Below, one piece after another: positions 9,128 to 22,140 of a DNA stretch of 23,401 nt (its first letter is position 1; each line of letters starts with the position of its first letter). Made by a program: the position numbers and the translations under genes. Source of the DNA: Bdellovibrionota bacterium (lineage in GTDB: Bacteria; Bdellovibrionota_C; UBA2361; JBGSMV01); assembly GCA_041739995.1 (NCBI GenBank), contig JBGSMV010000012.1, positions 1 to 23,401 of the forward strand, written 5' to 3'. A model generated the notes under the pieces. The model saw nothing but the letters and a program-made list of their open reading frames with translations. It was not told the origin of the DNA and made no database searches.

Positions 9128-10477
9128 TTAATTAAGCAAAAGAAGCGCTAACTGTGGTTGGATGGTGGCTTGCGCGAGTATCGAGGCCCCGACTTGCTGC
9201 AGGATTGAGAAACGTGTGAGCGCAGCACTCTCTTGAGCGACATCAGCATCTCGAATGCGACTTTCAGCGGCAGCGTAGTTCTCTCCCGATGTCCTGATTA
9301 CTTCCACCGCAGCGCCTATCCTACTTTGCGAAGCTCCAATTTGTGAGCGCTTATCATTCAAAAGATTCAGTAGCGACTGAAGTGAATCAAGCGCGTTGAG
9401 TGCCGATTGTTGAGTGAGCAATCAAAAACCTGTTTGAGCAAGTGACTCGGTATAAGTTGTGGTAACTACCTGGAGTTGCGTGTCTTGAAGTTCAACCAGA
9501 AAACTTCCCACATCTCCTGTGACTCGATCGGTTACGTTGTCGCCATTGAAGTCATAGACTCCCGTCGAGAAGGTAAAGTTAGTAGGGGCCTCCACCGTAA
9601 AGGGACCTCCAAGGAGATTAAAAAAGGCAGGATTATTAAGAAATCCAACGAGCCCGCCGTTCCCGCCATCGGCAGAAAATTCCACGGAGTTGCCGACGAT
9701 CTCCGCTTGAAAGTTGCTGAGCCCTCCACCAGCGAGCGCCATTAGTTCCTCAGCCTGCTTAGTTAGTCCACCCACCCCACCATAATAAAGCTCAATTCTC
9801 AACTGCAAAGTGCCATCAACGAACTCATCAAACACCAACAAATCATCGAATCCATCATTGTTGAAGTCGCCTGCAACCATTTCTGCCTCGGTCAATGGAG
9901 AGATTCCACTCACATTCAAATTGAAGTTTGTGTCTCCATTATTATAGGTACCCAATCCTACTGCCTGCGAACTAGTGGAACTACTTTGCTCGAGAAATTG
10001 TGCTATCAGGATTGCATTAATGCCAGAGCCGGCTTGAAGCTGAAGTTTTGCATTGCTTCCGTCAAGGAGGCGAAGCCCGTTGAAGGAAACACCTTCAAGC
10101 AGTCTCTGGTATTCATCCGCAAGTTGCTGCGCCTCACCATTGATCACACTGCGTTGGCCAGTTGAGAAGATTCCATTTGAAGCCTGCTCCGCGAGTTCCC
10201 GCTGGCGAGTTACAATTTCAGTCAGCTGCGCGATACTTTGATCCGCAATTGACAGAGCTGAGATTCCGTCGTTTAGGTTTCGTAACGCCTGGCCAAGAAT
10301 TCGTCTCCCCGCCTCTAAGCCAGAGGCGACCGCAAGACCTGCGGCATCGTCTGAAGCACGATTGATTCGCTGGCCGCTACTAAGGCGCTCGGACACACGA
10401 CCAAGCGCCTCACTCGAGTGAGCGAGCGAGCGCTGCGTACGCAGCGCGTAAATGTTCGTACCTAAAGTAACAGGCAT
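9128..10477 (-). pseudogene. fliC: Second flagellin-family gene with FG-GAP-like insert, interrupted by one in-frame TGA (9422-9424)
   Basis: MPVTLGTNIYAL...ERLSSGQRINRASDDAAGLA is Flagellin_N. The centre has GDFNNDGFDDL and YDFNGDNVTD. After GGT TTT TGA the same frame continues LLTQQSA...RSQIGASQSRI...AAESRIRDADVA...QPQLALLLLN, which is Flagellin_C. Confidence 0.85.
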
Positions 10478-10569
10478 CCTTGCCCCACACACCTTTCACA
10501 CAGAACCCTCGCACGCACTCGTCACCGCTCAGACGATGCAAGTCACAAGAAGGTTCACCACATCTCATA

Positions 10570-12096: not shown

Positions 12097-12479
12097 TCTG
12101 TAGAAATGTCTTTCATCGACCAGGCCAGCTGTCCCCATGCGAGTATAAAGCAAATTCCGCCAACCGGAGTAATGGCTCCGAGCCAGCGCTCTCCGGTAAG
12201 TGCAAGCAGGTAAAGAGATCCGGAGAAGAAGATCACTCCGACAAAGAGCAAAGCGCATACTCTCTTCGCCAAGGCAGCAGGTATCGTTCCGCTGGCTGCA
12301 CTAAGCGCGACTACCAGCGCTCCCAGCGCGTGAATGAAGTGATAGAATACAGCCTTCTCGAATATCTCCTTCTCGTAGTTTCCAAGGACATCCTTTAGGC
12401 CGTGCGCTCCAAAGGCACCGAGTATTACCGCGAGGGCGAGAAGAGCGGCGGAGAGTGAAATGAGGCGGGAGAGCAGCAT
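12093..12479 (-). CDS. DUF423 (YgdD/TMEM256-like) membrane protein
   Basis: LGAFGAHGL, AVFYHFIHALG, FSGSLYLLALTG, LGAITPVGG. Confidence 0.9.
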   Translation of the reverse strand: MLLSRLISLSAALLALAVILGAFGAHGLKDVLGNYEKEIFEKAVFYHFIHALGALVVALSAASGTIPAALAKRVCALLFVGVIFFSGSLYLLALTGERWLGAITPVGGICFILAWGQLAWSMKDISTD

Positions 12480-12557
12480 GACATTTTTCGATGAGGAACG
12501 ACGGTCGGTCTCCCCGCCACTTCGAATTAGCGGACCAAAGGCCCACTAATGTGAAAG

Positions 12558-12632
12558 TGGCGGAGTCGACGGGACTGCTCGCCAATGGCGAGCAGGACTC
12601 GGCAGTATTTTTCGGTTCGAGTCCCGTCGACT
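12558..12632. repeat. tRNA-Asp 3'-end fragments (one direct, one inverted) enclosing a palindrome
   Basis: 12558-12576 is identical to 12657-12675 (19 nt including CCA). 12614-12632 is the reverse complement of 12663-12681. Palindrome GCTCGCCA-A-TGGCGAGC at 12577-12593. Confidence 0.85.
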
Positions 12633-12656
12633 TGGTGAGCCAGGGACGAACAAAAA

Positions 12657-12733
12657 TGGCGGAGTCGACGGGACTCGAACCCGCGACCTCTCGCGTGACA
12701 GGCGAGCGTTCTAACCAACTGAACTACGACTCC
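12657..12733 (-). tRNA. tRNA-Asp(GTC)
   Basis: GGAGTCGTAGTTCAGTTGGTTAGAACGCTCGCCT-GTC-ACGCGAGAGGTCGCGGGTTCGAGTCCCGTCGACTCCGCCA; 77 nt cloverleaf with encoded CCA. Confidence 0.97.
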
Positions 12734-12762
12734 ACTTCCGGTTAAACTAACCGCTTCTCAGG

Positions 12763-12933
12763 GAGAGGTCGCGGGTTCCTTTCCGAACCCTGCAAGGAAA
12801 CAATGCTACGCCAGCTCGCATTGCTATTGTTTCCCTACGTCGCTTATCGCCATCGCCCTTTCGGGCTCATGGCTCCGCAACGTCCTCTCGCGTGACAGGC
12901 GAGCGTTCTAACCAACTGAATTACGTTCACTCC
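12763..12933 (-). repeat. Degenerate tRNA-Asp 5' half with hairpin-rich insert and an inverted tRNA fragment
   Basis: 12884-12925 matches 12687-12728 at 41 of 42 nt (D and anticodon arms). 12763-12778 is the reverse complement of 12677-12692. The intervening stems are GGAAACAAT/ATTGTTTCC, GCCC-TTTC-GGGC and GGGTTC/GAACCC. Confidence 0.85.
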
Positions 12934-12969
12934 TTCGACCTGGACTAAAACTCCAAATCGAGAGCGGAA

Positions 12970-12996
12970 AGTATAGCAATTCCATGCTCATAGCAA
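12970..12996 (-). promoter_or_regulatory. Probable sigma70 extended -10 promoter for the tRNA-Asp locus
   Basis: Minus strand TTGCTA-N15-TATACT with TG-n immediately before the -10; it lies upstream of the degenerate tRNA half. Confidence 0.45.
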
Positions 12997-13090
12997 GAAA
13001 CTGAACAAAACCCCTGAATTGCTCAGGCTTCTAGCCCAATGATATACAATCCCCTCACCTAGTACCAAAATTAAGAAGGGAATCGCAGCC

Positions 13091-15787
13091 ATGGCTGAGT
13101 TTGACCATAAATCGGTAGACCGTAAATGGCAGGGATATTGGGAGGCGAATAAGACCTTCCGAGCCGACCAGCCCTCGGCCAAGAAATTCTACTGCCTCGA
13201 CATGTTCCCCTACCCCTCGGGCTCAGGCCTGCACGTTGGCCATCCGCTCGGATATACCGCCACCGACATTGTGTCTCGCCATAAGCGCATGCAGGGATAC
13301 TCAGTTCTGCACCCCATGGGCTTTGATGCCTTTGGGCTGCCCGCAGAGCAGCATGCAGTCTCTACTGGAGAACACCCCAGCGTTATTACCAAAAAAAATT
13401 GTGAGGTTTTCACCAAGCAACTAATGATGGTTGGGCTTTCCTACGACTGGGACAGAAACCTCGCTACCTGCACCGAAGACTACTACCACTGGACTCAGTG
13501 GATTTTTCTTAAACTCTACAACTCTTGGTTTGACCAAGAAGCCCAGCGCGCGCGACCGATTGAAGAACTAAAGATTCCTTCAGAGATCCAATCAAAGGGC
13601 CCGGCAGCGATTGAAAACTTCCGTGCAGAGCATCGCCTCGCCTTCTACGCCGACGCGATGGTGAACTGGTGCCCAGCACTCGGCACCGTGCTGGCGAACG
13701 AAGAAGTCATCGACGGCAAATCCGAACGTGGCGGGCACGACGTTATCAGAAAGCCCATGAAACAATGGCTTCTGCGCATTACTTCCTATGCCGAGCGCTT
13801 AATTTCCGAGCTCGAAGGAATTGATTGGCCCGAGAGCATCAAAGACCAACAAAAAAACTGGATTGGGAAAAAACGCGGTGCAGAAATTCGTTTTACAATA
13901 GCTGATTCGAAGCACGAGCTGGTGGCCTTCACCACCCGCCCCGATACGCTCTTTGGAGTTACCTTTTTTGTTATCTCGCCGGAGCATCCCCTGGTTGAAT
14001 CAGTGACCACACCCGCGCAAAAAGCCGCGGTTGAAACGTACAGGGAAGAAGCGAAAAAACTAAGTGAGCTGGCACGTACCATAGAGAACCGCAAAAAGAC
14101 TGGTGTGTTTTCTGGTTCGTATGTCGTGAACCCCATTAACTCCGAGAAGGTGCCGCTCTATATCGGCGACTACGTTCTCATGACCGTTGGTACCGGCGCC
14201 GTGATGGGCGTTCCTTCGCACGATGAACGCGACTTTGAGTTCGCCACCACCTTTAAGCTCGAAATCAGAGCCGTGATTGCGCCTAAAGGCGCAAAGCCTG
14301 AAGTAATCGAAGCCGTGAAAAACGGGACTGCCGCCTGGACTGAACCAGGGGTCATGCTCGCCAACAACAGCGCGGTGGCCAAGGAGCTCTCATTAGAGGG
14401 ACTCGCGAACAAGGAAGCCGCCTCACGCATTGTTTCCTGGCTTTCAAAGAATGAGAAGGGCAACGCCACAGTTACCTACAAACTGCGCGATTGGCTGTTC
14501 TCGCGTCAACGCTACTGGGGCGAGCCCATTCCTATAATCCACTGGGAAGACGGCACGTCTTCGGCTCTAGACGAGTCAGAACTGCCTCTAAAACTTCCCG
14601 AGGTCCAAGAATACAAACCTTCAGATAGTGGAGAGTCCCCCCTGGCGCGTGCCACCGAGTGGCTCAAAGTAACCGACACAAAGTCAGGTCGTGTAGGCAG
14701 GCGCGAAACAAACACCATGCCTCAATGGGCTGGTTCGTGTTGGTACTACCTGCGCTTCATTGACCCTAAGAACTCGAAAGCCGGCTGGGCTCCAGATTTA
14801 GAGAAGGGCTGGATGCCAGTGGATCTCTACGTCGGTGGCGCTGAGCATGCGGTGCTACACCTTCTCTATGCCCGATTCTGGCACAAAGTGCTCTTTGATC
14901 TTGGTTACGTATCAACGCGAGAACCGTTTCAAAAGCTTTATAACCAAGGAATGATCCTGGCCAACGCCTACAAGAACGCCCGGGGTGCGCTCGTTCCTAC
15001 CAACGAAGTGGTCGAAGGTGAAGATGGCATCGCTCGACATGGTACCAGTGGAGAACAGCTGGAGAAGATCGTGGCGAAAATGTCGAAGTCGCTTCGCAAT
15101 GTCGTGACTCTTGATGAAATCGTTCAACAATATGGCGCCGATACGTTTCGCATGTACCTAATGTTCATGGGGCCCCTAGATGTTGCTCGCGCCTGGGACT
15201 CACGCGCCATAACGGGAATTCACCGTTTTCTTCGTCGAGTGTGGACCTGGGGTACCGGGGACCAGGAAACCGGCGTCCGCGCCACAATCAAGGAACAAGA
15301 CGAAACGGAGTTGGTCAAAAAGGCACTTCATCGCCTGGTTAAGAAGGTGGGAAGCGACATTGAAGCTATGTCTTTTAACACTGCAATCTCCAGCATGATG
15401 GAATTCTTGAATACAGTTCAGGACCAACCGGTCAGCAACGAAACTGTCCGTCGCTTCGTGCTGGTACTCTCACCATTCGCCCCCCACATGGGCGAAGAAC
15501 TCTGGGAGCGCCTCGGTAACACTTCAAGTATTTCCAAAGTAGCGTGGCCGGAATATGAGGAGAAGTGGCTCCAGGACTCAGTGGTCACCGTCGTCGTGCA
15601 GGTGAATGGCAAGAAACGCGCGCTGCTCGAAGTCGACGTTAACATCGACGAACAATCACTGAAAAACATGGTAATTGAGCGTTTGGATTCCACCGACTAC
15701 AAAGTAACGGCAGCGGATCAGTTCGTTACGGTGAGGAACCCCGCCACTAAAGCGCCAAAGTTGATTAACATTGTGAAGGCCGGCTAA
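13091..15787 (+). CDS. leuS: Leucine--tRNA ligase
   Basis: MFPYPSGSGLHVGH (HIGH motif), editing-domain FTTRPDT and GTGAVMGVPSHDERD, SRQRYWGEPIP, KMSKS, C-terminal VVQVNGK. Confidence 0.98.
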   Translation: MAEFDHKSVDRKWQGYWEANKTFRADQPSAKKFYCLDMFPYPSGSGLHVGHPLGYTATDIVSRHKRMQGYSVLHPMGFDAFGLPAEQHAVSTGEHPSVITKKNCEVFTKQLMMVGLSYDWDRNLATCTEDYYHWTQWIFLKLYNSWFDQEAQRARPIEELKIPSEIQSKGPAAIENFRAEHRLAFYADAMVNWCPALGTVLANEEVIDGKSERGGHDVIRKPMKQWLLRITSYAERLISELEGIDWPESIKDQQKNWIGKKRGAEIRFTIADSKHELVAFTTRPDTLFGVTFFVISPEHPLVESVTTPAQKAAVETYREEAKKLSELARTIENRKKTGVFSGSYVVNPINSEKVPLYIGDYVLMTVGTGAVMGVPSHDERDFEFATTFKLEIRAVIAPKGAKPEVIEAVKNGTAAWTEPGVMLANNSAVAKELSLEGLANKEAASRIVSWLSKNEKGNATVTYKLRDWLFSRQRYWGEPIPIIHWEDGTSSALDESELPLKLPEVQEYKPSDSGESPLARATEWLKVTDTKSGRVGRRETNTMPQWAGSCWYYLRFIDPKNSKAGWAPDLEKGWMPVDLYVGGAEHAVLHLLYARFWHKVLFDLGYVSTREPFQKLYNQGMILANAYKNARGALVPTNEVVEGEDGIARHGTSGEQLEKIVAKMSKSLRNVVTLDEIVQQYGADTFRMYLMFMGPLDVARAWDSRAITGIHRFLRRVWTWGTGDQETGVRATIKEQDETELVKKALHRLVKKVGSDIEAMSFNTAISSMMEFLNTVQDQPVSNETVRRFVLVLSPFAPHMGEELWERLGNTSSISKVAWPEYEEKWLQDSVVTVVVQVNGKKRALLEVDVNIDEQSLKNMVIERLDSTDYKVTAADQFVTVRNPATKAPKLINIVKAG

Positions 15788-19532: not shown

Positions 19533-19609
19533 GGGCCAGTAGCTCAGTTGGTTAGAGTGCATGCCTGATAAGCATGAGGTCGGTAGTTCGAATCTACCCT
19601 GGCCCACCA
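19533..19609 (+). tRNA. tRNA-Ile(GAT)
   Basis: GGGCCAGTAGCTCAGTTGGTTAGAGTGCATGCCT-GAT-AAGCATGAGGTCGGTAGTTCGAATCTACCCTGGCCCACCA; CCA encoded. Confidence 0.97.
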
Positions 19610-19709
19610 CGTATTGATGTTTGGTGTATCGATATTTAGTACCGTTTTTGATTCGCATTCCTTGAGAGATCGGGGAGGGGCGGATGAGTCCAGAAGTAAC
19701 CCTGTGTAA

Positions 19710-19782
19710 GGGGCAGTAGCTCAGCTGGGAGAGCACCGGCTTTGCAAGCCGGGGGTCAGGGGTTCGATCCCCCTCTGCTCCA
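19710..19782 (+). tRNA. tRNA-Ala(TGC), CCA not encoded
   Basis: GGGGCAGTAGCTCAGCTGGGAGAGCACCGGCTT-TGC-AAGCCGGGGGTCAGGGGTTCGATCCCCCTCTGCTCCA followed by TTC; G3:U70 pair present. Confidence 0.96.
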
Positions 19783-19785
19783 TTC

Positions 19786-19817
19786 TTCGTCACTCGCCAA
19801 GGGCGAGCTTTGACGGA
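19786..19817 (+). repeat. Hairpin downstream of tRNA-Ala (terminator or REP-like)
   Basis: TTCGTCA-CTCGCC-AAG-GGCGAG-CTT-TGACGGA. Confidence 0.5.
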
Positions 19818-19987
19818 CTGGACTCGGTTCGAATAAATTCTCACCGTGTCCACATTTTAGATTTTAGCGCATCCCTTTCGTAGAGGTTTCTTGCGGACCT
19901 TAGGAGAGACACTGTAGGAGTGGAGAACGCTCGCTGTCGAGCTTGCCTCCTTAGTTTGTAATTTGATTGTCTCGTGCGTCCAGACCC

Positions 19988-20962
19988 ATGACGAAAATTC
20001 CGCCCGACTCAAATCCCTCCAAAATTGTTTCCCCATTTGAAATCATTGGAGCTGAGTTCGACTCGGGCGGTCGAGTGCGTGGAACTTCCTTGGCGCCCAA
20101 AGCGCTTCGCGAGTACGGACTATTTGATAGAATCCAACGACTCAGCTTACCCATTCATGAGGGGCACGACGTTTCTCTACCACCCACTCCCAGCGCCGAG
20201 ACTTTTCAAGAGAAACGCCCCGGACCGCCCCACGTCAATGACCTCGCTGCTGCAGAACGCTTCTGCCAGGCGCTCTACGATAACATGACCGCACTACTTG
20301 GACGTGGGCACCGTCCTTTGCTCATCGGAGGAGATCATTCGGTCTCAATCGCATCTATTTCTGCGGTAGCCGAGCATTATCGCCGCACCCACGGTCCGGA
20401 TGCTAAGATCGGACTGCTGTGGGTAGACGCGCATCCGGATCTCAACACGCCCGAGAGCAGCCCCAGCGGAAACCTACACGGCATGGTTGCTCGCACCTTA
20501 CTTGGAGAAGGTCCGACCTCTCTGACTTCACTGGGATCTGCCAGAGCAAAATTATCTCCTTCAAAAATCGCACAGATTGCTCTCAGAGACGTGGACCCAC
20601 CTGAGAAAGAATTCATTCGCAACAGCGGCATCACCGCGTTCACCATGAAGGATATTGATTGCGAAGGCGTGTTTCGTTGCATGCAACGCTGCCTTTCGGT
20701 GCTCTCCCAAGATACGGTGGGAATTTACGTTTCATTTGACCTGGATGCCTGTGACCCCTCTATCGCTCCAGGCGTTGATACGCCGGTTCGCGGAGGTTTG
20801 TCTTTCCGAGAAGCTCATTTGGTCATGGAGATGATCGCGGAACAGAACAATATCCTCGGCATCGAACTTGTGGAGTACGATCCAAGACGTGACATCGATC
20901 ACGCCTGCGCGGATCTCTCTATCGCGCTGATTGAATCTGCGCTTGGGAAAAGCATTCTTTAG
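19988..20962 (+). CDS. rocF: Arginase (ureohydrolase family)
   Basis: GGDHS, VDAHPDLNTPESSPSGNLHGM, SFDLDACDP..APG..TPVRGGL..RE, LVE. Confidence 0.9.
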   Translation: MTKIPPDSNPSKIVSPFEIIGAEFDSGGRVRGTSLAPKALREYGLFDRIQRLSLPIHEGHDVSLPPTPSAETFQEKRPGPPHVNDLAAAERFCQALYDNMTALLGRGHRPLLIGGDHSVSIASISAVAEHYRRTHGPDAKIGLLWVDAHPDLNTPESSPSGNLHGMVARTLLGEGPTSLTSLGSARAKLSPSKIAQIALRDVDPPEKEFIRNSGITAFTMKDIDCEGVFRCMQRCLSVLSQDTVGIYVSFDLDACDPSIAPGVDTPVRGGLSFREAHLVMEMIAEQNNILGIELVEYDPRRDIDHACADLSIALIESALGKSIL

Positions 20963-20973
20963 TTGATTTCAGC

Positions 20974-22140
20974 TTAACGTCGACGCTTCTGTCCACTTGG
21001 TGAGCTACGCATTGATTCAAGCATGCGAGCGACTTCCTCAGAGCGCCTCTCGGTGTAGCGCATCGTAACTTTCACATCTCCGTGTCCAAGCGCCTGAGAA
21101 ACAAGCCGAATATCTCCGCTGTGATCGAGCAGTTCAAGCGCAAATGTATGTCGAAGCAGATGAGGATGAATGCTTACTTCTTCGGACAGTCGATTGACAA
21201 GCCGCCACAGACTCTTTGCTCCAATCGCGAAGCTCTCCAGCTTCGAAGCACTCGCACCGTAGGTACTCACAAACAGTGCGAGCTTATGATCGGTCGTAAG
21301 TTTTAGTGGCGAAAAGAACTTCTTCAGTTCAACTTCCCGGGAGACAAGATAATCGCGCAACATCGGCCTCAAAGAGCTAGGGATATACACGTTACGAAAG
21401 CGACGCCCCTTGGTGCGCACCGTCTCAAACCATTCGAGCTTCTCGTCGAGCTGCTCGCGCCTCATTAGACGCAGTTCATCTGCGCGCAGCCCCGTTTCCA
21501 AAAGAGTGAGTACTAGCGCTTGATCGCGCAGGGTTTTAAATCCAGGCTTCTCCGCGACCCACGCCTTCGCCTGTTTCTTTAGAGCTGCGGTCTGTGCCTT
21601 CGTCAGTGCTTTCGGACGAGCAGTTTCAATCTTCGGCCCACGCACCTCGCGAGCGGGATTGGTAAATCCAGGAACTCTGTCCGCCAAGGTACGTCCCAGG
21701 TGCTTGATCGTGGCAAGCCTGCGCGCCACAGAAGCCGGAGCCTCTCCGGAACGAATGCGGGCATCAATAAAGCGCTGTGTGGCCGACTGATTCCAATCAC
21801 CAACCCGCACACGCCTAACATCACGCGCCGCAGTGAGCTCCTGCATGAAAGCGAGGAAAATTTTTAAATCAGTGCGCTTCGCGCGCGCGGTGTGAGCAGA
21901 CCCCATGGCGTAAAAGCGACTATAACTTTCAACTACCTCCAGCAACGCCATGTCATCGACAGAAGATCGAGCGCGCGTGTCTGAGAAGAGATTCCTCACA
22001 GGCACTTGCGCTTTTGACCTACTGCCGGGGCGTTTTTTTGGCTTGTCGCTCACCCCATAAGCTTTGGAAGCCTGGCGTACTCTGTCAAGAGAGGCGTTTC
22101 GCATGGATTGTCTCAGCAGGACCCATCTGCGAGACTGCAT
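20974..22140 (-). CDS. Tyrosine recombinase (XerC/D / phage integrase family)
   Basis: SVARRLATIK, LETGLRADEL, TKG, HPHLLRHTFA, LGH, TMRY (complete R-K-H-R-H-Y set). The true start may be ATG 22104 or GTG 22053. Confidence 0.9.
   Translation of the reverse strand: MQSRRWVLLRQSMRNASLDRVRQASKAYGVSDKPKKRPGSRSKAQVPVRNLFSDTRARSSVDDMALLEVVESYSRFYAMGSAHTARAKRTDLKIFLAFMQELTAARDVRRVRVGDWNQSATQRFIDARIRSGEAPASVARRLATIKHLGRTLADRVPGFTNPAREVRGPKIETARPKALTKAQTAALKKQAKAWVAEKPGFKTLRDQALVLTLLETGLRADELRLMRREQLDEKLEWFETVRTKGRRFRNVYIPSSLRPMLRDYLVSREVELKKFFSPLKLTTDHKLALFVSTYGASASKLESFAIGAKSLWRLVNRLSEEVSIHPHLLRHTFALELLDHSGDIRLVSQALGHGDVKVTMRYTERRSEEVARMLESMRSSPSGQKRRR

Follow-up and report, generated by a model that had tools for sequence, protein, structure and literature searches.

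A tRNA-Asp gene flanked by displaced pieces of itself: likely scars of small hairpin cassettes in a Bdellovibrionota bacterium

Transfer RNA genes are classic landing sites of large elements, and much smaller repeats are also known from bacteria: the REP, BIME and REPIN palindromic repeats are mobilized by RAYT proteins, which are Y1 HUH transposases, and the tyrT distal repeats of Escherichia coli are tandem units 3′ of a tRNA gene, each of which carries the 3′ end of tRNA-Tyr. Genomic islands that target tRNA genes are bounded by attL/attR repeats and use anticodon-loop, T-loop, 3′-end or D-loop sublocations, and the smallest islands in the portion of the survey drawn on here measure 2.8–3.5 kb (bioRxiv 10.1101/2020.11.02.365908). 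Hairpin repeats of the NTS/SRM kind accompany the Ssn proteins, which the excerpted report describes as single-domain GIY-YIG nucleases of single-stranded DNA (Chenal et al. 2025, PMC11893778), and the ssoA-type single-strand origins of rolling-circle plasmids are characterized, in the passages used here, by the RSB and CS-6 (5′-TAGCGT-3′) motifs (PMC4598088, PMC5703833). Here we describe a locus in a 23,401-nt stretch of DNA (the window; positions 1–23,401, forward strand, of contig JBGSMV010000012.1, assembly GCA_041739995.1 of a Bdellovibrionota bacterium) at which the lodger is a non-coding cassette of 140–200 nt. The explanation that we favor, with moderate confidence, is that one functional tRNA-Asp gene is flanked by scars left by small selfish cassettes, which settle inside tRNA genes and restore them.

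The genome under study, here G000, is an 81-contig assembly of an uncultured hot-spring bacterium. Coordinates are those of the window, and the pieces of the locus are read on the minus strand, where they lie in the following order.

12970..12996, minus strand: promoter-like motif (TTGCTA, 15 nt, TG-n-TATACT; extended −10 type), 5′ of the pseudo 5′ half
12884..12933, minus strand: pseudo 5′ part of tRNA-Asp (positions ~1–47)
12791..12883, minus strand: X module, a 93-nt insert of two hairpins; covariance model match 95.9–108.9 bits
12763..12790, minus strand: fold-back clamp, made of GGGTTCG, a GAAAG turn and a 16-nt antisense copy
12784..12790, minus strand: sense T-stem piece GGGTTCG of the clamp
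12763..12778, minus strand: antisense copy of tRNA positions 42–57 in the clamp, 16 nt, 100% complementary to 12677–12692
12734..12762, minus strand: 29-nt spacer from the clamp to the intact tRNA
12657..12733, minus strand: intact tRNA-Asp(GTC) with encoded CCA (ARAGORN; Rfam 73.5 bits)
next 24 nt, minus strand: spacer 3′ of the intact tRNA-Asp
12614..12632, minus strand: antisense copy of the T-arm/acceptor (tRNA positions 53–71), 19 nt, 100%; start of the downstream module
12575..12595, minus strand: 21-nt palindrome, two 10-nt arms with 1 nt between them
12558..12576, minus strand: distal copy of the 19-nt tRNA-Asp 3′ terminus with its CCA (blastn 19/19)

A prior inspection of the letters of this DNA (the sequence-only reading) had listed eight such pieces, and all eight are present on the minus strand at the positions it assigned to them. 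ARAGORN and Rfam both call the middle copy alone a tRNA, and this copy is the sole Asp tRNA among the 42 tRNA genes that ARAGORN predicts in the assembly. The upstream direct repeat (12884–12925 versus 12687–12728) is identical at 41 of 42 nt (blastn E 2.8e-14) and extends to 45 nt at 96% in the repeat search (12881–12925); the downstream direct repeat (19/19) runs to 23 nt at 96%, and the two antisense pieces match at 19/19 and 16/16, all of these values having been checked by repeat search and blastn. The pseudo 5′ half has decayed in its acceptor and D-stem region, with a 2-nt insertion and substitutions, and at 19.8 bits 12879–12927 falls short of the gathering score of the Rfam tRNA model (29). 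In the distal 3′ fragment, which is read as the displaced original 3′ end of tRNA-Asp, the palindrome is placed in the T-loop region, with GAGTCC before it and AGTCCC after it. The cargo between the repeats is ~150 nt on the 5′ side and ~80 nt on the 3′ side. Direct repeats of a tRNA gene bound each insert and an intact tRNA is restored, as expected of a tRNA-targeting integrative element.

Under the favored explanation, two small non-coding hairpin cassettes would each lodge inside the tRNA gene, regenerate it and leave a displaced piece behind. The upstream cassette, consisting of X, the clamp, the spacer and a fresh copy of tRNA positions 1–47, would enter at the variable loop after ..GAGAGG, and the original 5′ part would stay beside the native promoter and decay as the pseudo-half. 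The downstream cassette would be a smaller mirror type, made of an antisense T-arm piece, a small palindrome and a sense 3′ end, that displaces the original 3′ end of the gene. Cassettes of this kind could survive because insertion leaves an intact gene, with its 5′ part duplicated in what is here called type A and its 3′ part duplicated in type B. The footprint of a tiny tRNA-targeting palindromic element, as the sequence-only reading had put it, fits the evidence that follows. Its notion of one element nested at the T-loop does not, since the modules are two and occur independently in relatives, and the main cassette sits at the variable loop instead.

The X module is a conserved structured family. 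Its homologues each fold independently into two hairpins, the first of which varies in sequence with its pairing kept, its 3′ strand bearing an internal loop rich in A. In the second, a stem of 5–9 bp differs in sequence between copies and the loop is conserved as GAGCTRGCG(N)A; within this loop G000 has GCTGGCG, most copies have GCTAGCG and those of the type found in genome G005 have TAGCGT. A covariance model was made from five copies with the structure set by hand, the MAFFT alignment of hairpin 1 being poor, and was rebuilt from nine. Among the nine copies 92.2% of cells are paired, and changes on both sides are found in 16 of 20 pairs; among 58 copies (50 distinct) 91.6% of cells are paired, with compensatory changes in 18 of 20 pairs. 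None of 500 shuffles reaches the observed values in either set, and slid controls are 29–44% paired for the nine copies and 30–46% for the 58. These alignments were fitted to the model and are hence biased toward its structure, and shuffle tests are inflated where sequences are related; the slid controls nevertheless fall far below the observed pairing. For the G000 leader, minimum free energy (MFE) prediction gives a fold of −88.3 kcal/mol (z −4.67) in which GAGAGG/CCUCUC closes a four-way junction.

Rfam 15 gave only tRNA matches in the window at gathering scores and nothing relevant over 12450–13050 at E ≤ 10; no family was matched on 12 loci with dispersed X copies, nor on one copy of the repeat-borne type described below at E ≤ 5. 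Group II introns, IS200/IS605 ends, integron attC sites, retrons, K-turns and self-cleaving ribozymes were considered and set aside, with no motif (by consensus features) or Rfam match for any of them. Introns of tRNA genes, whether group I or of the bulge-helix-bulge kind, were likewise rejected: in G000 the X-bearing copy ends after 7 nt of the T-stem and turns back on itself, a complete and uninterrupted tRNA follows, and Rfam scans of the window found no intron families.

X adjoins many tRNA genes: Asp, Met, Pro(GGG), Pro(TGG), Gly, Trp, Arg(CCT), Ile(GAT), Val(TAC) and Glu(TTC). Seventy-five copies were examined, a non-random sample made up of all strong matches and some hand-picked weaker ones. 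A matching intact tRNA lies within 400 nt of 34 of them, and X is on the strand of that tRNA in 34 of 34. Two layouts recur. In type A (14 copies, including that of G000) the tRNA is downstream: tRNA positions 1–~47 come first, then X, in some copies a few T-stem bases in sense orientation, an antisense copy that spans the junction, a spacer and the intact tRNA. Directly after X, 14/14 of these copies have a run of at least 8 nt exactly antisense to the local tRNA, and in 11 of the 14 this match is 11–16 nt long, the chance expectation for a 12-mer match being below 1e-3 per locus. In type B (19 copies), which is typical of genus g11 at tRNA-Asp, the tRNA is upstream; after it come a short hairpin, an antisense copy of positions ~59–35 that has diverged, a tight loop, sense positions 35–47, X, and sense positions 52–77 with CCA, often in tandem as 1–3 units. 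A sense tRNA match of at least 10 nt follows X in 18 of the 19 type B copies, the exception being truncated by a contig end, and in the copies read this match is the tRNA 3′ part. In one tRNA-Glu, X stands directly after the 3′ end.

Sense and antisense tRNA pieces are able to pair across X in types A and B alike, and X then projects from a long helix; the clamp arrangement of G000 has homologues in genomes G042 and G073. Most junctions directly follow ..AGG in the variable loop; those in tRNA-Arg and tRNA-Pro are in the anticodon arm. Duplex energies of the closing stems, compared with mononucleotide shuffles, have z-scores mostly between −3 and +1, as GC-rich flanks pair anyway; these energies are thus uninformative, and the exact antisense matches are relied on instead. 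By that measure the antisense piece tracks whichever tRNA is local.

Several of these loci carry further features. At locus L092 (G008:C181) an X cassette and a duplicated ~55-nt leader lie upstream of the tRNA-Ile of an Ile/Ala pair of the rRNA-spacer type, and the Rfam tRNA model spans the X-bearing copy as a single 133-nt match of 24.9 bits. Tandem cassette arrays with stretches of N inside them are found at L011 (G018), L062 (G020) and L105 (G036). Other small hairpin modules split distal tRNA-Asp 3′ copies between the T-stem and acceptor strand (L041, L046, L047, L050, L051 and L053 in genus g11; L004 in G014), and one module type of this sort recurs after the tmRNA of G000.

At tRNA-Val(TAC) in genus g11, adjacency to the promoter shows the displaced copy to be the original one. 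Among the 35 genomes of the genus searched there, 8 sites are filled (type A), 4 are deletion derivatives and 18 are empty, with one further match unclassified and four genomes giving no match. Where the site is filled, the pseudo copy directly follows the native promoter and leader, and a cassette-specific spacer precedes the intact tRNA; in the deletion derivatives the promoter is joined to the 3′ half of X, or hairpin 2 alone is left. The cassette (136–140 nt, tRNA parts excluded) is 77–92% identical over 15 pairs of six species, and the flanks (120 nt upstream, 100 nt downstream) are 46–68% identical against 47–54% for a shuffled control; standing so far above its flanks, the cassette is under selection or has recently spread. 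The pseudo tRNA-Val copies at L116 (G076), L118 (G070) and L127 (G060) have an extra D-loop insertion of ~20 nt at the same place in all three species.

For G000 the same polarity is supported by the promoter-like motif at 12970–12996, ~40 nt upstream of the pseudo-half, which also occurs 5′ of tRNA-Asp in the congener G001. The candidate promoter of the sequence-only reading is thereby made plausible and stays unproven, as the sigma-70 scan, which requires a spacer of 16–18 nt, reported a single site further upstream (13039–13068) and not the one at 12970–12996. With the promoter abutting the pseudo copy at tRNA-Val and the shared motif in G000, the proposal that the outer pieces are displaced halves of the gene holds up.

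The flanks of tRNA-Asp were compared in 20 relatives, and homologues of the insert are found in other genera and families, upstream of the gene in some and downstream in others. Genome G042 has an upstream module very like that of G000 without a downstream one, and in G027, G026 and G006 the downstream layout, with unrelated small hairpins, follows tRNA-Asp with no upstream module. Because the modules occur separately in relatives, the apparent nesting in G000 is the outcome of two independent events on the two sides of the gene. Within its own family, G000 has type A upstream, its congener G001 has type B downstream and G004 has neither at tRNA-Asp; the G000 module is 65–71% identical to copies in family f8 and 63% identical to that of G001 (42% in hairpin 1).

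The X model matches 47 of the 91 genomes of the order at E ≤ 1e-3, with no match in the other 44, and 41 of the 124 genomes of the phylum at E ≤ 1e-4. Outside the order a single one of the 33 other phylum genomes has X at the latter threshold (G111, with seven copies), so that X is restricted to this lineage. The pattern is therefore not the unique and unconserved one whose possibility the sequence-only reading had raised as an objection to itself, and the recurrence it had proposed to look for is observed: the same layout is found in relatives and at other tRNA genes, which places it beyond chance.

Copy number varies widely, from one in G000 to 11 in G065, 14 in G029 and 15 in G005, and blastn-short found no further copy of the insert or the palindrome in G000. 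The dispersed copies sit midway in repeats like miniature inverted-repeat transposable elements (MITEs). In genus g11 the unit is ~560–600 nt long with terminal inverted repeats (L071–L079 and L109 in G029 and G065; L088–L089 in G078), has a ~330-nt non-coding core common to all copies that includes the X-like module, and bears an end motif found 16–29 times per genome in G029, G065 and G078 against 0–1 for a control pattern. Genome G005 (L080–L083) has a different repeat of ~290 nt, in which 23-nt terminal inverted repeats enclose an X-like core; this type gave 13 equal-scoring X matches in the order search, and three aligned copies are 90–98% identical, which suggests recent activity. The single X of G000 is bounded by tRNA pieces and not by those terminal repeats.

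No transposase was found among open reading frames (ORFs) of at least 120 aa beside six dispersed X copies; an ORF ~1.8 kb from X at L076 and a short one ~1.6 kb from X at L079 are transposase-like by eye only. No pair of MITE terminal repeats had the spacing of an autonomous element in three genomes. Two degenerate loop patterns had no match in viral contigs, and distant-mode blastn of 12760–12890 had none in plasmid or phage collections. A REP-like family driven by RAYT or Y1 transposases in G000, for which the sequence-only reading had suggested a search, is not borne out, there being one X copy and, on other contigs, two weak matches to Y1_Tnp (29.9 bits on C68, and 21 bits, below the cut-off, on C14).

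From this distribution we infer that the cassettes are selfish units, mobile or formerly mobile. Integration would proceed by recombination within the shared tRNA segment, with an enzyme acting in trans, and would yield the direct duplication, X and the clamp being the structure that such machinery recognizes as single-stranded DNA or RNA. Several observations weigh against this explanation. The tRNA-lodged X copies examined have no integrase, transposase or nuclease as a neighbor, and no excised, circular or in-transit form was seen; with that and the lack of phage and plasmid matches, mobility is drawn from the distribution only. The strong conservation and the compensatory changes also fit a host function, and the stems hold 31 G·U-type against 22 A·C-type cells, an excess so slight that RNA and folded DNA are not separable. 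At some loci the duplication takes in the local upstream flank (~55 nt at Ile, 14 nt at Trp), which favors in-situ duplication or template switching over the import of a ready-made tRNA piece. One ancient insertion at tRNA-Val followed by losses may also account for the filled and empty states. Lastly, the explanation gives no account of how a cassette gains an antisense copy of each target; the copy may stem from a guide-like function, from fold-back or template-switch synthesis at hairpins, or from selection for a closing helix.

Some of the same evidence can be turned to a function for the host. X and the clamp might be a structured RNA in tRNA leaders and trailers that controls the maturation, stability or level of the tRNA, either through pairing of the antisense piece with the tRNA or through display on a partial tRNA scaffold. 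The covariation in all three helices, the sense orientation kept in every tRNA-lodged copy, the match of the antisense piece to the neighboring tRNA every time and the conservation of the cassette far above its flanks would all be expected of such an RNA. Transcription is also in keeping with it. The sigma-70 scan found no promoter-like site between the cassette and tRNA-Asp (spacer 12734–12762), so the cassette is probably transcribed as the 5′ leader of the only tRNA-Asp in G000, from which RNase P would then remove it. For the tRNA with its trailer, MFE folding predicts that the 19-bp antisense pairing is preferred over the cloverleaf (z −5.99); the suggestion of the sequence-only reading that antisense arms compete with cloverleaf folding thus agrees with a prediction and goes no further than that prediction does.

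The distribution is what a host RNA accommodates poorly. X is absent from the 44 order genomes noted above and from 18 of the 31 matched tRNA-Val loci within one genus; it is found at different tRNAs in different genomes, upstream in G000 and downstream in its congener; and it occurs as tandem arrays, as deletion derivatives and, in some genomes, as 11–15 dispersed copies inside MITE-like repeats. A role in the service of the host is for these reasons considered unlikely.

The locus could also be a set of ordinary tyrosine-integrase att scars, in which X would be an arm of the att site and the inverted pieces secondary rearrangements, with no small mobile cassette involved. Direct repeats of tRNA 3′ ends are common 100–300 nt downstream of tRNA-Asp in the order, extra tRNA-Asp pieces of at least 10 nt lie within 450 nt at 13 of the 19 loci where the tRNA was found, and G004 and G014 have tandem 3′-end units. 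T-loop and D-loop sublocations and upstream integration are known for genomic islands in the sections of the survey used here (bioRxiv 10.1101/2020.11.02.365908), and G000 has four tyrosine recombinases, one of them in the window beside tRNA-Ala. None adjoins tRNA-Asp, however, the nearest Phage_integrase match (21043–21576, in the ORF at 20974–22140) being ~8 kb away, and only ~80–200 nt lie between the repeats in place of a kilobase cargo. Protein-binding arms are not expected to keep hairpins through compensatory changes, and the att arm of a single integrase is insufficient to explain the same X at nine or more tRNA types and in MITE-like repeats. Scars of this ordinary kind are accordingly an improbable source of the pattern.

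A more elaborate form of the cassette explanation would make the X cassettes a new class of non-autonomous tRNA-lodging elements, in which the antisense copy is a built-in guide or clamp instead of debris and X is a scaffold for an enzyme. The antisense copy would pair with the target tRNA gene or its transcript, set the insertion point and be renewed at each new tRNA. We hold this proposal to be distinctly unlikely.

The hairpins could instead be recognition sites, and the tRNA fragments repair products, of a small GIY-YIG cassette of the Ssn-like or homing type that has lost its nuclease. Small GIY-YIG ORFs do lie beside tRNA-His (C48:18372–18584) and tmRNA (C41:46545–46757) in G000, the latter amid sense and antisense fragments of the tmRNA T-arm, and two X copies are within ~1.1 kb of a small GIY-YIG ORF (G008:C145 and G029:C2). 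Against this, only 2 of ~125 X matches neighbor such an ORF, a scarcity that also tells against an enzyme of this kind for the selfish cassettes, and no GIY-YIG ORF is near tRNA-Asp. The published SRM pattern has no match in 12400–13100 and 25 genome-wide, and its 9 matches in the first Mb compare with 3–12 in mononucleotide shuffles, which shows no enrichment. A nuclease-less relic is on these grounds very unlikely. In the tmRNA trailer itself (G000:C41:45932–46760) sense and antisense T-arm pieces lie among hairpins, and the corresponding tRNA-His region is G000:C48:18130–18600.

A repeat-induced misjoin in the assembly of a metagenome bin can be dismissed as extremely improbable: the source contig does belong to a draft bin, and the 42-nt repeat does break short-read graphs so that no one contig crosses the whole stretch, but the unique junctions are covered in two or three of four sequencing runs at depth like that of the flanks, and the identical architecture was separately assembled in dozens of genomes. 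The runs are four DNA runs of one hot-spring/biofilm study, searched as Logan contigs; these cover 12687–12913 with no differences (two runs), 12704–12925 (one difference), 12541–12691 (one difference) and 12891–13300. Every unique junction is bridged without differences, and the contigs break at the 42-nt repeat only. As the runs possibly include the source samples, this cover is supporting evidence and no independent proof, and the recurrence of the architecture in other genomes is the stronger argument against misassembly.

The surroundings of tRNA-Asp are ordinary. The gene leuS lies divergently upstream and a DUF423 gene downstream; the neighbors comprise DUF423, a metallophosphoesterase, LeuS, an HD protein and a flagellin-like protein, and no recombinase, transposase or nuclease gene lies within 3 kb. 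A 356-aa protein encoded at 9422–10492 (minus strand) has a flagellin N-terminal domain and, after it, weak FG-GAP-like repeat matches, with no flagellin C-terminal match. Elsewhere in the window, a tRNA-Ile(GAT)/tRNA-Ala(TGC) pair of the rRNA-operon kind occurs in the region 19533–22140, where no rRNA was matched in the window. An ORF for a 388-aa tyrosine recombinase (20974–22140, minus strand; Phage_integrase 78.7 bits) lies ~1.2 kb downstream of this pair and may belong to an element integrated at tRNA-Ala.

Mobile cassettes would imply some machinery that recognizes both the structure of tRNA genes and a folded nucleic-acid core, a matter of interest to work on mobile DNA and on targeted insertion. 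Cassettes in the service of the host would amount to a tRNA-leader RNA of a new kind, and if the antisense copy is a guide, the cassettes would be a protein-poor counterpart of guide-bearing transposon RNAs. In practical terms, scars of this sort can mislead tRNA annotation and break assemblies at tRNA loci. The bacterial layout was not found described in the limited collection of literature searched, in which mitochondrial hairpin elements, REP repeats and tRNA-targeting islands were found, and the X family is apparently undescribed.

Among known systems, the small palindromic repeats offer one point of comparison. Like REP, BIME and REPIN sequences and MITE-like repeats, X is a small, non-coding and non-autonomous hairpin unit with variable stems, and it is multi-copy in G005, G029 and G065. 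Unlike REP, BIME and REPIN sequences it is single-copy in G000 and lodged at a tRNA in fixed orientation between sense and antisense flanks derived from that tRNA, and unlike the REP/RAYT pairing it has no RAYT gene nearby, the two weak Y1_Tnp matches lying elsewhere in the genome. The tyrT distal repeats resemble type B in being tandem downstream units that end in a copy of the tRNA 3′ end; they differ in that they are not known to have a conserved structured core or antisense pieces, or to occur at many tRNA types.

The mitochondrial double-hairpin and repetitive hairpin elements are likewise mobile-looking units of one or two hairpins that invade genes and intergenic regions, and like X they have no known adaptive function, in the portion of the account used here (PMC2800124). 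They are organellar and of another sequence family, and that portion describes neither tRNA regeneration nor an antisense clamp for them. With the Ssn/SRM system, as presented in the excerpts of PMC11893778, X may share hairpin repeats that matter as single-stranded DNA, and small GIY-YIG genes lie beside tRNA-His and tmRNA in G000; X differs in being ~90 nt long with two hairpins, as against a single hairpin of 20–50 nt, and in having no adjacent ssn-like gene. The ssoA origins are orientation-dependent, folded single-stranded DNA of ~100–160 nt with a short conserved motif, going by the sections of PMC4598088 and PMC5703833 used here, and the hairpin 2 loop of X contains GCTAGCG, with the exact TAGCGT in the G005 type, a likeness of just five or six bases. 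X has two hairpins where ssoA has one long one, there is no plasmid match, and no RSB was seen in the G000 copy, for which no systematic RSB search was made.

The closest likeness in behavior is to the tRNA-targeting islands and prophages, as these appear in the part of the survey drawn on above: the insert lies inside a tRNA gene, the intact gene is restored, a partial-tRNA direct repeat results, units accrete in tandem, and integration occurs downstream and, more rarely, upstream. Where islands carry kilobases of genes, the insert here is ~140–200 nt long, non-coding and without an integrase, and its junction is mostly at the variable loop; a covarying two-hairpin core, an antisense copy of the target and the presence of the same core at nine or more tRNA types also set it apart from the islands treated there. 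The cassette works like a miniature tRNA-targeting integrative element and looks REP- or MITE-like, while lacking defining features of the families with which it was compared.

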